Positions 4,121-41,756 of a DNA stretch of 42,056 nt are shown here, piece by piece. The notes beneath the pieces were generated by a model. It ran no database searches, was not told the origin of the DNA, and saw only the letters and a program-made list of their open reading frames with translations. How positions within the stretch are numbered: position 1 is the stretch's first letter; each line of letters begins with the position of its first letter. Source of the stretch: a virus. Lineage: Duplodnaviria > Heunggongvirae > Uroviricota > Caudoviricetes. The DNA is taken from positions 1 to 42,056 of the IMG/VR virus record IMGVR_UViG_2917413769_000001; one strand, written 5' to 3'. The translations under genes were made by a program, and so were the position numbers.

Positions 4121-5121
4121 GTTGTATTCTTCGCCAGCGCGACGGCCTCGTAGATTGTCACCCAGGAATTGGTGTTATCAGGGTTAAGGAAATCGCCGAC
4201 ATGGCGCACTGATGTTACCAGGAATTTTCCCGAGAAATTCACTCGGTTACGCAGCGATGAGTACGAGCGTTCACTATTAACCGAAAGGAGCGCCCCTGGT
4301 CCCGAGATAATATTTTCGGGCAAAGCAACCTTCATTCCACAGAACAAATCTGAGCGAAGGGGACACTTGAACGAAACACTGAACATACCAATCCAGTTCG
4401 GCTGGTCAATCAATTCCTGGGGGAGAATTTGAACTGTGCCATCGTCGGTAGTGTTATTGTCGAAAACGCGAATGACCCGGTTTTGCATCACCATCTGCAC
4501 TCCGGTGTAATCAGCACGACTTACATAGGAGAAAGAGTGACTTCGAATTACGGCAGCAAGTTGGGTTAGTCGCGGATAAACACCAGTAGCGGGCTCTGCA
4601 AGCACCAACTGGTCATTGATGGAAATGTCAATTTTGAATCCGGGATAAGCAACTGCCAGCGCGCGGTTGAGCACATCACTTAACTTCTCCCCTTTTTTTC
4701 CATCGAGTGTAATGCTGTTCTCTTGCCCTTTGTCATTCAGCAACGGGCTGGGATTCACCACGAAATTAAGAGACTGATTAGTCCCCTGCCACACCGGAAA
4801 AGGGTTATAAATCTGCCCGCTGAGAATAAGTCCACCCTGATTGGGGTTTGCAAGTGGAAGTCCTGCAGAAAAGCCGGCGATCAAATCGACCCGGCATCCT
4901 GCCAGTTGCGTGCTCTCCCGCAGCATTGAAATTGGCACGCCAAACAGGGAAATTCTGGTACCGCTGGAAACAACGTCATACCCGGTGATTAGTGCGTCGA
5001 ACTGGATTTGTAGCGCTGACCCTGGAGACAGAGAACTGTCAAACGGGCCAATCGGATTACCTGTGTCATCCAGCGGCGTTTTGCCATTTTTGTCAGTTAG
5101 TTCGAGTCTGTAGTATTTCAT
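4117..5121 (-). CDS. Tail protein (gpD-like position)
   Basis: 334-aa ORF between tape-measure region and baseplate genes. Confidence 0.3.
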   Translation of the reverse strand: MKYYRLELTDKNGKTPLDDTGNPIGPFDSSLSPGSALQIQFDALITGYDVVSSGTRISLFGVPISMLRESTQLAGCRVDLIAGFSAGLPLANPNQGGLILSGQIYNPFPVWQGTNQSLNFVVNPSPLLNDKGQENSITLDGKKGEKLSDVLNRALAVAYPGFKIDISINDQLVLAEPATGVYPRLTQLAAVIRSHSFSYVSRADYTGVQMVMQNRVIRVFDNNTTDDGTVQILPQELIDQPNWIGMFSVSFKCPLRSDLFCGMKVALPENIISGPGALLSVNSERSYSSLRNRVNFSGKFLVTSVRHVGDFLNPDNTNSWVTIYEAVALAKNTT

Positions 5122-24844: not shown

Positions 24845-25125
24845 TAGTGCCTCAGATGATCAACAAGGCGCGCAACGTTGCCTCTGACGGCCACCAGCAC
24901 GGCAAGGAATATGATGTTGGCCCCGATAGTTGCCCACGAAGAATGAGGATAAATGCCGCAAAGATAAGCCAGGGGCACGGCACTGTAAGTCACCGCGATA
25001 AGCCATGCCAGACGCGAAATCCACGGGCGATGTCGTGAATCTCCCCGGCGGTAAAACATAATAGTAATGACCACTCCGGCGCACAGCAGCGCGTTTACCG
25101 TTGCTGACGGGTCATTTAGTACCAC
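24844..25125 (-). CDS. Lysis-associated membrane protein (holin/antiholin-like)
   Basis: 93 aa with two or three hydrophobic segments; immediately upstream of endolysin. Confidence 0.45.
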
Positions 25126-25498
25126 CTGAACCTCCCCGGCGCGTTATCAGCGCCACCAGCGAGCCGACATCCTGGTTATTCAGGAATGTCAGGATTTTAA
25201 CGGCTAAAGCAGAAACGATTACGGCACCGATGGCATCCAGCGGTTTATCACTATACCCGGTCAGGTTCGTCAGTTTGGAACCCACCAGTCCGGAACAAAG
25301 GATCCCGGCAATATACGACACAACGAAATATGCCATCCGACGCGCCGCGCTCAGATCTGACGCTGTTGCGATGTAGAATACAGCCCCTGCAAATGCGCCA
25401 AATACGACACCATAATCAGTTCCAGTAAGTAACCCATAGACACTGGCACCTGTCAGGACACCACCAGCCAGCCCTGAGCCTGAGATCGGTTCGGACAT
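25112..25498 (-). CDS. Holin-like membrane protein
   Basis: Start moved to internal ATG at 25498 preceded by GAGGGGG; Gly-rich with several TM segments; first gene of lysis cassette. Confidence 0.5.
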   Translation of the reverse strand: MSEPISGSGLAGGVLTGASVYGLLTGTDYGVVFGAFAGAVFYIATASDLSAARRMAYFVVSYIAGILCSGLVGSKLTNLTGYSDKPLDAIGAVIVSALAVKILTFLNNQDVGSLVALITRRGGSGGTK

Positions 25499-25637
25499 GT
25501 AGCCCCCTCTTAATTGCTGTGAGTCCTCCCAACGTTGAGGGGAAGAAATGCCGCGTCTGCGGCTGTTGATTTCAGGTTCACGGACTGAATTTAAACGTTG
25601 AAGCCTATCGGTGATGGTTCCCGGAACCCTAAACTGA

Positions 25638-25661
25638 AAGGGCTGCCAGCTGGCAGCCCTT
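25638..25661. other. 24-nt perfect palindrome AAGGGCTGCCAGCTGGCAGCCCTT (strong hairpin or protein-binding site)
   Basis: Exact inverted repeat in the non-coding Q-holin interval, about 140 nt upstream of the holin start. Confidence 0.4.
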
Positions 25662-25868
25662 AAACGAAGAATCTCGCTGAAACGAGACGAAATGAATTTG
25701 AGACACCCCATCCAACAAACCATTCAGGTTATCTGGATTTTTTACACAGCAATTTTGCAAAAAACCGCGCCCACTCAAACCAGAAATGCTTCCCGGTCAC
25801 TCAGGGAAACCCCATCATCGCAGACCGAAAAGCGTAAACAGGAACAGCCAGCGGGAATCGAATCCGCA

Positions 25869-25945
25869 TGGTCCGCCACCGGGGGCTCGAACCCCGTACA
25901 ATCAAATTAAAAGGCTGATGCTCTGTCCTGGTGAGCTAGTGGCGG
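25869..25945 (-). tRNA. tRNA-like element (possible phage tRNA or pseudo-tRNA; anticodon UUU if functional)
   Basis: Reverse complement folds as a cloverleaf: 7-bp acceptor CCGCCAC/GTGGCGG, D-stem GCTC/GAGC with GG loop, T-arm CGGGG-TTCGAGC-CCCCG, encoded CCA; anticodon stem weak (3 WC + 1 GU + 1 mismatch). Confidence 0.35.
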
Positions 25946-26598
25946 CTGACAGGTTTCACTAAATCGGTATGTAAAAAATTGCCAACTAATGAATAGCTGG
26001 CAATATGAACAAACAAACCGTGAAATTATCATAATAAGGAATAAGTATTGTCCCAAAATTACCTCCAGCGTTAATTAGCGTATGCCTATACTGCTCTTTC
26101 CGCAATGGAACACCCTTCACTTTCAGATTTAGTTATTGCCACTGGATGGTTTAGCGAAAATCGCTCTAAATCCTCGCCCAGTCCATGGCCGGCGGAGATA
26201 TAATACAGGTTTAACTAAGATGGCCTGCAGGATTATACAACTCAACTTTTTCCAGGCGGCCAAAAGTGCTACACACCCAGATATTTCATGGGCTTTATAA
26301 GGTAGTTACCTCTGGGTTTCATAGTTTACTCACGAATGATTTGCATGGGCAAAATTTACCCCAAATGAAAAACCACACCATATCAGGAGGTTTAATTTTC
26401 TGATCAAGTGTACGCATTCTTAATTAGAAAGCAGAAACCATCATAAAACACAAAATCCCCACGGAGTTAACCGCAGGGCTTGAATGAATTCTCTAACGAA
26501 TGAGCACAATACCCCATCATTGGAATCAGATTAGGCAATTTTATTCAAACATGCAATACTTCGTTGCCATCATGTTGTCAAAATTTACTAACAGGCAT

Positions 26599-27411
26599 CT
26601 ATCGTGTGACAGACTTCAATGCAGCATCAGCATGAGACTCTTCTACATGGCACTGGCTTACCAGAAGCTCAAACAGCGGCTTAAAGTTGCGTGACCATGT
26701 CGGTTGGCTTATTGTCATCACGCCTTCACACAACGCCTTGCGCACGCTCTCTGCCGGAAGCCTGGCATAACCACGGCCTGAGCATTTCCCGCATTCCTTC
26801 ATCACCGGCACGCCCTGAAGTTCCGTCGCCTTCTTATCCAGCACCTTCCCCTTACCATGACAACGACACGCATTGCTGATAACACCTTTGCCGTTACAGG
26901 TATTGCACATAACCCGCGCGGTTTCCCGTACCGACTTCCATTCTTCCCAGTAAGATGGATAAACCCCATTCGTGATTGCGGCCCATTTTGGTGGCTTACC
27001 GTCTGGATATTGAACCTTGTTTGTGAAGACATCAGCTTCGGTGAAGCCGCTACCAGCGCAGCAATCGCACTGCCTGACACTTGCCGCACTGCGCGTATAA
27101 TCCTGATACGCAAAAGCGCACATAATTTCGAGAACGCGTCGGCGAATTGTTTCATCGAGTTCAGTAACTGATTTACAACGTCGTGACAACTCAACTGCTG
27201 ACACATACAGTTCCTCCAATGCCCTGTCAGGGCTGCTGATTCCAATTTTTGCAAGGTACAGATCAAAGCCAAATCCACACCTGGCATTTACCAGCCCCAG
27301 CGCTGCCATTACATCTGTACCGGTCAGGTTATCGGTGGCCGTCGCCCGCGAAGAATCACTGAACATCGGGGACTTTGGAGCAAAATATTTTGCGATTGAT
27401 TCAAGGTTCAT
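26599..27411 (-). CDS. Late-gene antiterminator Q (Cys-rich lambdoid Q family)
   Basis: 270 aa with multiple CxxC motifs (CDCC, CNTCNGKG, CRCHGKG, CGKCSGRG); between nin genes and lysis cassette. Confidence 0.65.
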   Translation of the reverse strand: MNLESIAKYFAPKSPMFSDSSRATATDNLTGTDVMAALGLVNARCGFGFDLYLAKIGISSPDRALEELYVSAVELSRRCKSVTELDETIRRRVLEIMCAFAYQDYTRSAASVRQCDCCAGSGFTEADVFTNKVQYPDGKPPKWAAITNGVYPSYWEEWKSVRETARVMCNTCNGKGVISNACRCHGKGKVLDKKATELQGVPVMKECGKCSGRGYARLPAESVRKALCEGVMTISQPTWSRNFKPLFELLVSQCHVEESHADAALKSVTR

Positions 27412-34899: not shown

Positions 34900-35036
34900 C
34901 GTAAAAACCCGCCGAAGCGGGCCTGTACGTCCGGTGCCACCAACCAAAGTACACCGGAAATTACACAAAACCAATGAACACCCAATGGGCGCTACCAATG
35001 GCCCGGGGATTATACATCCAAAATTGAGGATCTCAT

Positions 35037-40299: not shown

Positions 40300-40624
40300 A
40301 ATGGCAATTCCAGCGAAAAAGGCGGCTGAAATTCTGGATGTTTCAACCAGGACTATTTACCAGTTGATTAACTCAGGGCAGTTGGCCGGTAAGAAGATAG
40401 GCAATAAGTATCGAACAACCGCATCAGCATGCCTTGCATATTTGTATTCCCCGCAAGAAACTAAACAGGCGAACGCGGGTGATCATAAAGGAGATAATTT
40501 ATGTCAATCACCCTCAGAGGCGGTGTGTGGCACTGTCATTTCTTTACGCCGTCAGGAAAAAGAGTTAGACGCTCTCTTGGTACGGGGGACAAAAAGCAAG
40601 CGCAGGAACTGCACGACAAACTGA
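40286..40624 (+). CDS. xis: Excisionase (Xis/AlpA-type HTH)
   Basis: [31 protein letters not shown]; directly upstream of and overlapping integrase. Confidence 0.55.
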
Positions 40625-41664
40625 AGGCAGAGGCGTGGCGGGTAGATAAGATAGGGGATCTTCCGTCCAGATCTTTTGAAGAATGTTGCATCCGCTGGAT
40701 ACGGGAAAAAGAGCACAAGCGTGCTCTTGATGATGACAAAACCAAGATAGAGTTTTTTCTGCAACATTTTTCGGGCAGGGACATTTCGTCTATTACGGCG
40801 AATGATGTATACGGCGTCGTCGAAGGGATGACCAACAGAAAACATTATCAGAACTGGGTTAGCAGCAGGGACGCTGCAATCAGGAAAGGAAAGGAACCAC
40901 CGGAATACAAGCCAAAGCTGGTTAGCCAGGAGACAAGGGCACAGCATCTGTCATTTATGCGGGGTCTTTTCCGTATAGCTGAGAAGGACTGGCTCTGGAT
41001 AAAGGATGCACCTGTTATCAAGGTGAGAAAGCCAGGGAGCAAGCGTATCCGCTGGCTCACTAAAGATGAGGCCTCACGGCTAATCGAATGCGTTTCTGAT
41101 GATTTAAAGCCGGTCGTTACTTTTGCGCTGGCGACAGGACTTCGGCGCTCTAACATTATCAACCTGGAATGGCAGCAGGTCGATATGCAAAGGAAAATTG
41201 CCTGGGTAAATCCAGAGGACGCTAAAGCGGGAAAGGCTATCGGCGTAGCCCTGAATGATACCGCATGCAAAGTGCTTCGCGATCAGATTGGAAAACATTC
41301 CAGGTGGGTTTTTGTCTACACGAAAGCAAAACATCGACCTGATGGAACAATCACCCCCGCAGTCAGGAAAATGAGTCTCGGTAACCATAAAGGATGGGAT
41401 GCGGGTCTGAAGCGAGCCGGAATCGAAAATTTTCGCTTCCACGACCTGCGCCATACCTGGGCAAGCTGGCTGGTTCAGTCCGGTGTCCCGTTATCCATTT
41501 TACAGGAAATGGGTGGATGGGAATCGATTGAAATGGTCCAGAGATATGCGCACCTGGCCCCTAATCATTTAACGGAGCACGCACGGAAAATTGATCTGAT
41601 TTTTGGAAGCAGCGACACAAATACGACACAGGAAATAAGTCAGGCAGGATTGAGGATAGCGTAA
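40501..41664 (+). CDS. int: Tyrosine integrase, P22-like family
   Basis: 387 aa; catalytic-region motifs [14 protein letters not shown] and VQRYAHL; close resemblance to P22 Int as recalled; ends 16 nt from a tRNA gene. Confidence 0.9.
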
Positions 41665-41679
41665 TTCATTGATTTATAA

Positions 41680-41756
41680 TGGCGCGCCCTGCAGGATTCG
41701 AACCTGCGGCCCACGACTTAGAAGGTCGTTGCTCTATCCAACTGAGCTAAGGGCGC
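41680..41756 (-). tRNA. argU: tRNA-Arg (anticodon UCU), argU-type
   Basis: Reverse complement GCGCCCTTAGCTCAGTTGGATAGAGCAACGACCTTCTAAGTCGTGGGCCGCAGGTTCGAATCCTGCAGGGCGCGCCA: 7-bp acceptor, D-loop GG, anticodon loop CUUCUAA, T-loop TTCGAAT, encoded CCA. Confidence 0.9.

Follow-up and report, generated by a model that had tools for sequence, protein, structure and literature searches.

What is the tRNA-shaped sequence with a flawed anticodon stem that stands between the antitermination gene Q and the lysis genes of a lambdoid prophage: a working phage tRNA, a decayed one, or an element that only has the shape of a tRNA and serves RNA processing? The sequence lies on the minus strand, at positions 25869-25945, of IMG/VR record IMGVR_UViG_2917413769_000001, whose entire 42,056 nt were analysed and are called here the window. 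The window contains a lambdoid prophage of Escherichia sp. E1130 and is 100% identical to contig PDIL01000010.1 of GCA_004745435.1. A reading of the letters without database searches, hereafter the original prediction, had described a tRNA-like gene with an imperfect anticodon stem and had proposed these three possibilities.

25869-25945, minus strand: tRNA gene of the argN lineage (slot X, defined below), anticodon UUU (Lys), 77 nt with the encoded CCA; identified by ARAGORN, Rfam and homology.
25902-25918, minus strand: anticodon arm of this gene, with the loop CUUUUAA at 25913-25907, the anticodon at 25911-25909, the G30.U40 pair at 25915/25905 and the C31xU39 mismatch at 25914/25906.

Read directly, the minus strand gives CCGCCAC-UA-GCUC-ACCAGGACA-GAGC-A-UCAGC-CUUUUAA-UUUGA-UUGUA-CGGGG-UUCGAGC-CCCCG-GUGGCGG-A-CCA. 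The acceptor stem (7 bp), the D stem (4 bp) and the T stem (5 bp, with the loop UUCGAGC) are all perfectly paired, the discriminator is A73 and the CCA is encoded, just as had been described. The account of the weak anticodon stem was also exact: it shows three Watson-Crick pairs (U27-A43, C28-G42 and A29-U41), one G30.U40 pair and one C31xU39 mismatch, with four of the five positions paired, around the loop CUUUUAA. ARAGORN calls a tRNA-Lys(ttt) at exactly 25869-25945 on the minus strand and thereby reproduces the Lys-type UUU anticodon. In Rfam, family RF00005 matches with 48.3 bits, well above its gathering score of 29 (E=1.9e-7 for the whole window), and the only non-standard pair flagged is 31-39; the failure of tRNA predictors that the original prediction had allowed for did not occur. 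The gene has a 7-nt anticodon loop and contains U8, A14, G18, G19, U33, A37, G53, U54, U55, C56, A58 and C61, and its minimum-energy fold is a cloverleaf of -27.2 kcal/mol, to which an A26-U44 pair is added and in which the anticodon loop has 9 nt. It is full-length, keeps every invariant nucleotide and shows a single mismatch among 21 pairs, and so does not fit the definition of a pseudogene. A permissive Rfam search of 25400-26700 gave no RNA family other than tRNA at this site. It is not an assembly error, since NCBI GCA_004745435.1 and a Logan assembly, independent records for the source strain, both contain the identical tRNA sequence. This is a real, phage-borne tRNA gene, located in a known place for such genes.

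With a 96-nt query around the tRNA, matches at 78-88% identity were obtained in 1,781 of the 5,426 complete E. coli genomes and in 245 GenBank phage records; they are tRNAs by annotation and lie between Q and the lysis or stx genes. Homologues of this kind, in such numbers, take the match far beyond chance. The best identity in these two collections, 88.5%, is to a prophage tRNA-Arg. The statement that lambdoid and Stx phages carry tRNA genes in this position was borne out, since the window gene belongs to the same lineage as argN of phage 933W and the prophage arrays between Q and holin. Homology places the gene among the phage tRNAs, with a functional gene the more probable form and a decaying one the less probable. 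The arrays include ileZ-argN-argO, Ile2-Arg(UCU), Ile2-Lys(UUU)-Thr-Gly and Ile2-Arg(UCU)-Thr-Gly. Comparison with them identifies the window gene as the second member of a known phage tRNA array, a slot (slot X) which exists with an Arg or a Lys anticodon in one and the same frame. Annotation of this slot is inconsistent: the gene type with C33 is a tRNA-Lys in some RefSeq and phage records and is unannotated in others, beside annotated neighbours (locus L003, 1504-1580; ON470583.1, ON470580.1; loci fetched for comparison are cited by such L numbers).

Three sets of relatives define the place of the window gene in this lineage. The tRNA-Arg(UCG) argN of the Stx2 phage 933W shows 78% identity and has the acceptor stem CCGCCAY/RUGGCGG, the 9-nt D loop and the T arm in common with it, and the ileZ-argN-argO cluster occupies the same place in the late leader, between Q and the first late genes. 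The window gene differs from argN in its UUU instead of UCG anticodon, in A73 instead of U73 and in the broken 31-39 pair; it has no ileZ before it and no argO after it, and a holin cassette, not stx, lies downstream. The tRNA-Lys(UUU) of the Ile2-Lys-Thr-Gly arrays, found in lambdoid prophages of E. coli (strain C8, for example) and Shigella, in phage PhiR47_1 and in the PPompW phages, is of the same lineage (84-87.5% identity) and has the same anticodon in the same slot. Its loop is CCUUUAA, with C33, as against CUUUUAA in the window gene; its anticodon stem is perfect, where the window gene has the 31-39 mismatch; its T stem contains an A.C mismatch, where that of the window gene is perfect; and its discriminator is U73 instead of A73. 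U33 is the universal nucleotide at this position of the anticodon loop. The nearest relatives, with 88% identity, are tRNA-Arg(UCU) genes of Ile2-Arg arrays: L110 of the enterotoxigenic E. coli (ETEC) strain EC416, L002 of strain ECCNB12-2, and L061 from IMG/VR. With the anticodon loop left out of the comparison, the sequences closest to the window gene are three tRNA-Arg(UCU), each with 8 differences in 70 positions; the E. coli Lys type shows 9-10.

The window tRNA is thus Lys by its anticodon only, and the comparison points to descent from a tRNA-Arg(UCU) of the argN lineage. The L110 type, present in strain EC416 and in three IMG/VR contigs, has G30.U40, U44, C60 and A73 in common with it, so the weak G.U pair was inherited from tRNA-Arg. 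Relative to the nearest tRNA-Arg(UCU) genes, the only new changes in the anticodon arm are C35>U, which turns UCU into UUU and changes the identity, and G39>U, by which the C31-G39 pair is lost. In L110 the T stem is incompletely paired, in the window completely. Together, the two changes make positions 32-39 (CUUUUAAU) the same as those of the host tRNA-Lys(UUU) of the lysT family, with which A73 and CCA are also shared. The acceptor, anticodon-stem and T-stem sequences and the length of the D loop differ from the host tRNA, and only 40 of 68 comparable positions match; outside the shared positions the two molecules are unrelated. Every one of the 5,426 E. coli genomes contains the host reference at 100% identity, in a median of 6 copies. 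In the identity rules of E. coli, C35 and A20 mark a tRNA-Arg for arginyl-tRNA synthetase (ArgRS), with C35 dominant, and U34, U35, U36 and A73 mark a tRNA-Lys for lysyl-tRNA synthetase (LysRS), with U35 dominant. Direct reading gives U34, U35, U36 and A73 in the window tRNA, and C35 is lost; by these rules a lysine acceptor is therefore expected.

The sequence immediately downstream of the gene contains what is left of its array.

25840-25867, minus strand: dead 3' remnant of a tRNA-Gly(UCC), with the T arm GCGGA-UUCGAUU-CCCGC, a decayed acceptor 3' strand and CCU.
25739-25839, minus strand: non-coding block of about 100 nt, about 75% identical to the sequence after E. coli prophage tRNA arrays and including the conserved UUUUUUGCAAAAUUGCUGUG.

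The tRNA-Gly remnant, GCGGAUUCGAUUCCCGCUGGCUGUUCC, begins one base past the CCA of the tRNA-Lys. In a BLAST comparison with about 90 fetched array loci, window positions 25869-25739 align to 1707-1837 of L001, the array of the E. coli C8 prophage, from the T arm of tRNA-Gly through about 100 nt of downstream flank, at 75.6% identity. The tail of tRNA-Gly and the downstream block of the Ile2-Lys-Thr-Gly arrays are thus kept in the window, and a deletion has removed the tRNA-Thr along with 45 nt at the start of tRNA-Gly; the remaining stump is 17% diverged and fits the definition of a pseudogene. The Ile2 tRNA, which is 1-2 bases ahead of slot X in most arrays examined, is absent. An array starting with a CAU-anticodon tRNA (ileZ) and having its own promoter pT was not found, and there is no second tRNA within 15 kb. 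On this alignment, the window tRNA is best described as the lone survivor of a degraded Ile2-X-Thr-Gly array. This origin, the anticodon switch from Arg(UCU), and the inheritance of the G.U pair, with the C.U mismatch as the only new defect, are the points at which the comparison goes beyond the original prediction.

The survivor belongs to a slot whose anticodon loop varies widely. A scan for the 3' half of the tRNA with A73 gave 112 more IMG/VR loci, and the fetched loci taken together repeatedly show the frame Met/Ile2(CAU)-X-Thr(UGU)-Gly(UCC). In slot X, the 69 distinct sequences have 31 different anticodon loops but keep the acceptor, D and T arms; part of this conservation of the body is an artefact of the search pattern, in which the T arm and the 3' acceptor strand were fixed. 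The loops include lengths of 5, 6, 8 and 11 nt and A33 or C33 for U33 (L006-L103 and L118-L227; for example L120 5537-5609, L142 2140-2212, L119 4400-4474 and L160 7420-7496), and in one series near-identical bodies differ only in the central three bases of the loop. The neighbouring Met, Thr and Gly tRNAs have invariant loops. The UUU anticodon is found on three body types: with C33 in E. coli, with A33 in another group and with U33 in the window. Taken as no more than a lead, this variability fits either weak selection for decoding or diversifying selection on the anticodon arm.

How the gene would be expressed is suggested by its position in the late region. The minus strand of the prophage contains the structural genes (about 0.4-21.7 kb), followed by the lysis cassette, Q and nin-type genes, and the plus strand contains RecE/RecT-type genes and the integrase.

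26599-27411, minus strand: antitermination protein Q, 270 aa (Pfam PF03589), a named antitermination protein of Escherichia sp. E1130.
26457-26478, minus strand: terminator-like hairpin about 120 nt past the stop codon of Q; consensus scan.
26028-26056, minus strand: weak sigma-70-like candidate site, TTGGGA-17-TATGAT; consensus scan.
25970-26004, minus strand: terminator-like hairpin with an 11-pair stem followed by UUUUUUA, ending about 25 nt upstream of the tRNA; consensus scan and direct reading.
25112-25498, minus strand: holin, 128 aa (PF16931); it opens the lysis cassette, which continues with a second holin, a GH19 endolysin and a DUF2514 protein.
41680-41756, minus strand: host-type tRNA-Arg(UCU), 72.1 bits (ARAGORN, Rfam), directly adjoining the integrase gene (40501-41664, plus strand).

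Q, the tRNA and the holin are all on the minus strand, with the layout of array loci L001-L005; the order is Q, a hairpin, a spacer of about 500 nt, a second hairpin, the tRNA, 370 nt of non-coding sequence and the holin. The original prediction placed the gene upstream of the holin, which is right as to strand and order, and the context can be refined: the holin starts at 25498, 370 nt beyond the 3' end of the tRNA. The hairpin at 26457-26478 resembles, in its position, tR' downstream of pR', and the stretch 26559-26451 is kept at 83-86% identity (BLAST) after related Q genes in Kluyvera and Klebsiella prophages. Given the terminator-like hairpin just upstream, the arrangement suggests that the tRNA is reached mainly by antiterminated transcription. 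Sigma-70-like sites are no commoner than in shuffled sequence, and Q-antiterminated late transcription is therefore the simplest route to the tRNA. From these elements a course of events can be proposed. A gene of the argN lineage in the leader of the late operon would have acquired, by C35>U, a UUU anticodon, which with A73 gives the two main LysRS marks and removes the main ArgRS mark; a second change, G39>U, makes positions 32-39 those of the host tRNA-Lys and leaves C31 opposite U39; and its neighbours in the ancestral Ile2-X-Thr-Gly array were lost by deletion. Q-modified RNA polymerase would read through the upstream hairpins and transcribe the tRNA along with the late genes, and the tRNA would then be cut out by RNase P, trimmed at its 3' end, charged with lysine and used to read AAA and AAG.

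The spacer at 25946-26450 of the minus strand (505 nt) contains no minus-strand open reading frame of 50 aa or more, and searches with these 505 nt, extended to low stringency, found nothing similar among the complete E. coli genomes and the GenBank phages. None of the loci with a Q 79-90% identical to that of the window (Kluyvera, Klebsiella aerogenes and metagenomes) has a slot-X tRNA, and the loci with a related holin show no tRNA. One locus, L117, has a lone tRNA-Thr(UGU) at 4221-4295, after a Q 80% identical to that of the window, with the anticodon of the phage tRNAs that counter P2 OLD. A Klebsiella aerogenes prophage whose Q is 79% identical (L115, and L116 1-449) contains, a few genes upstream of Q, a gene encoding a protein with a colicin D-like tRNase domain (PF06958, PF11429) and an immunity gene; this colicin D-like protein is a tRNA-Arg-cutting toxin. 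At the other end of the window, the host-type tRNA-Arg(UCU) is probably the attachment site of the prophage, which thus neighbours the isoacceptor from which its own tRNA apparently descends. Elsewhere in the window, the early region shows at 34902-34996 (minus strand) a match to the Hfq-binding sRNA isrB (Rfam, 41.7 bits versus a gathering score of 35, E=3e-4) with a terminator-like stem-loop at its end, a YdaT-toxin-like gene (PF06254; 32529-33071, minus strand) lies in the immunity/early region, and an HNH endonuclease gene (PF13392; 23201-23716, minus strand) lies between the lysis cassette and the packaging genes.

Whether the gene still works is the question on which the constraint in its sequence bears. 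We consider it probably, though with real reservation, a functional, late-expressed extra tRNA-Lys. Each nearest relative shows 9 differences from the window tRNA, of which G39>U alone disrupts base pairing. The A-U pair at 51/63 was replaced on both sides, giving G-C, and the T stem of the window tRNA is paired at two places where that of L110 shows mismatches; only two of the nine differences from L002 are in stems (binomial P=0.053). Divergence from the E. coli array is 10/80 in the tRNA and 32/131 in the adjoining dead sequence (Fisher P=0.05). In the family as a whole, 97% of the stem cells of 30 distinct canonical members are paired and compensatory change is found in all five anticodon-stem pairs, so the lineage evolved as a decoding tRNA. 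The Rfam score of the window tRNA is near that of the widespread E. coli prophage tRNA-Lys (46.0) and above that of the L110 tRNA-Arg (32.3).

The main competitor, which we judge clearly less probable yet serious, is that the gene is a decaying relic: a rare-codon tRNA-Arg(UCU) which, within an array undergoing stepwise deletion, was inactivated by C35>U and has since been drifting, with G39>U as the first structural hit, and which may still be transcribed and processed and contributes nothing. Several findings weigh against a functional tRNA, and most of them are what a relic would show. The surrounding array is degraded, with Ile2 and Thr gone and Gly truncated and 17% diverged. The mismatch is at pair 31-39, which is kept in 28 of the 30 distinct family members, and the Rfam score of 48.3 is 6-9 bits under those of the tRNA-Arg relatives (54-58). 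The anticodon loop of slot X is often non-canonical in other phages of the lineage and degenerate in many of them, in line with weak selection for decoding. The search for a promoter of the tRNA's own gave no convincing site (three sigma-70-like sites, versus 3.0 expected from shuffling). The window variant is a singleton, without conserved relatives and found only in Escherichia sp. E1130 among the collections searched: exact and degenerate patterns gave zero copies in IMG/VR, where two broader family patterns gave other variants only; scans of JGI metagenomes gave no copy; a scan of GTDB species genomes gave only C33-type sequences, from E. coli and Shigella; it is absent from the GenBank phages and the 5,426 complete E. 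coli genomes, with a best relative at 88.5%; and exact-protein look-ups of the window Q and holin returned only the source genome. Selection on this sequence therefore cannot be shown by conservation. A relic would also suit a prophage that adjoins the host tRNA-Arg(UCU), beside which the phage copy may have been dispensable. Against decay, however, eight of the nine substitutions avoid or compensate stem positions, no damage is seen in the loop, the tertiary nucleotides, the CCA or A73, the minimum-energy fold has stayed a cloverleaf, and the tRNA is less diverged than the dead sequence beside it. UUU anticodons are moreover found in at least three body types, one of them the commonest array type, which would be unexpected for a null mutation.

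If the gene is a functional tRNA-Lys, its use has to be explained. By a long-standing explanation, lambdoid and Stx phages carry tRNAs in their late leaders to serve rare codons. The window tRNA reads one of the commonest codons and the host has about six genes for it, so this explanation does not fit: Lys accounts for 5.3-5.5% of the prophage codons, AAA for 59-65% of the Lys codons, and the host has a median of 6 tRNA-Lys genes. Two other uses were considered and rejected. For tRNA-dependent lysogeny (mBio 2024), the prophage adjoins an apparently intact tRNA-Arg(UCU), not a tRNA-Lys; for self-protection from a tRNA nuclease of the prophage itself, the early region, with RecE/RecT-type proteins, the integrase and the YdaT-like protein, shows no nuclease candidate.

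A more speculative use is that the sequence-divergent spare tRNA-Lys(UUU) would sustain late translation when PrrC, the PARIS nuclease AriB or OLD-type Toprim enzymes destroy the host tRNA-Lys, and by analogy with characterised phage tRNAs this counter-defence role against tRNA-Lys nucleases is plausible. PrrC and AriB target tRNA-Lys(UUU), the isoacceptor to which the window tRNA corresponds. Phage tRNA-Lys restores infection against PrrC170 (PMC11555353), and the tRNA-Lys of T5 is not cut by AriB (PMC11464382; PMC12409363). Like the window tRNA, the T5 tRNA-Lys(UUU) and the phage tRNA-Lys that overcomes PrrC170 have the anticodon of the nuclease target and an anticodon arm unlike that of the host. 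The T5 tRNA is nevertheless unrelated in sequence and belongs to a virulent phage with a large tRNA region, and it owes its protection to U39>A and A41>C, of which the first is absent from the window tRNA, where U39 is kept. The tRNA-Thr(UGU) of phage 21 is a lambdoid tRNA that, by experiment, stands in for a host tRNA cleaved within its anticodon stem: P2 OLD cuts CNG motifs in anticodon stems, and phage tRNAs, including that of phage 21, evade it by an altered motif and a shortened stem (PMC12445682). Both features are also present in the window tRNA, whose 3' strand has UUG in place of CUG, with the CNG lost, and whose stem is one pair shorter. It is a different isoacceptor from the tRNA of phage 21, the window has lost its own tRNA-Thr, and the Thr tRNA of the related E. 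coli arrays is that of the host thrU.

Recognition by AriB speaks partly for and partly against counter-defence. AriB cleaves the host tRNA-Lys between C40 and A41, in dependence on the 31-39 pair (Mut1), A41 and U16 (PMC11464382; PMC12409363), a UAAU motif is common to all its substrates and U39 is needed for cleavage (PMC12409363). The window tRNA shows C31, U40, U41 and C16 where the host tRNA-Lys has A31, C40, A41 and U16, which favours the role, but it retains U39 and the UAAU motif, and its U40 is older than the switch to Lys; with the U39 that AriB requires present, PARIS resistance is not predictable from the sequence. A further point against the role concerns the arrays: the tRNA-Thr(UGU) and tRNA-Gly(UCC) at 1583-1736 of L001 are 100% identical to the chromosomal thrU and glyT (which have tyrU between them) in at least 5,421 of the 5,426 E. 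coli genomes, and are therefore captured host genes, not resistant variants. By this comparison, nuclease resistance is not a general property of the tRNAs in the related E. coli arrays.

A broader form of the counter-defence role would take in the whole of slot X in temperate enterobacterial phages as a fast-evolving counter-defence RNA, with a conserved body and an anticodon arm remodelled again and again to supply or mimic whichever tRNA is destroyed by the nucleases of the host and of rival elements. The window gene would then be an independent Arg-to-Lys conversion with its mismatch at the 31-39 pair on which PARIS sensitivity depends, and the remodelling may include Arg to Lys switches, loops without U33 and altered loop lengths. 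The loop variability described above fits this extension, which we hold to be improbable. The mismatch itself could also be adaptive, C31xU39 and U40 having been selected to block recognition by AriB, a P2 OLD-like enzyme or PrrC while decoding was kept, which we think unlikely. The differences at 31, 40, 41 and 16 do fall at positions tied to AriB sensitivity or its cut site, and the lost CNG half-site and the missing pair are those by which P2 OLD is evaded. Yet U40 was inherited from a tRNA-Arg ancestor of the L110 type, so that its selection did not take place in a tRNA-Lys; G39>U restores the UAAU motif of the AriB substrates and provides the U39 required for cleavage; and the related arrays carry host-identical Thr and Gly tRNAs.

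That the gene is a tRNA-shaped RNA which does not decode, either an RNase P site severing the late leader from the lysis mRNA, in the sense of the third possibility raised at the outset, or a decoy for tRNA-targeting enzymes, is very improbable. It would agree with the location inside a long untranslated leader and with the IMG/VR slot-X genes, which keep their body and vary in the sequence and length of the loop beside Met, Thr and Gly tRNAs with invariant loops. The window copy, however, has a canonical 7-nt loop with U33, A37, a sense anticodon and a matching A73, the conservation of the body is partly imposed by the search pattern, and the Arg(UCU) relatives show the compensatory evolution of the anticodon stem of decoding tRNAs. 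A missense tRNA, still charged with Arg through A20 and the Arg-lineage body, both of which are kept, and inserting Arg at Lys codons, is hardly credible, as the identity rules favour Lys (U35 for LysRS, C35 lost for ArgRS, and an A73 that fits Lys) and widespread misreading of Lys as Arg during late expression would probably be costly.

For this family of phage tRNAs, the same prophage slot is at present labelled Lys or Arg in some public records and left unlabelled in others. The lineage provides a compact natural series, consisting of Arg(UCG), Arg(UCU) and three forms of Lys(UUU), in which the change of amino-acid identity by one anticodon mutation, and the adjustment that follows it, can be studied. 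It may also offer a test of whether temperate phages, like T5, carry a spare tRNA-Lys against PrrC, PARIS and OLD-type nucleases.

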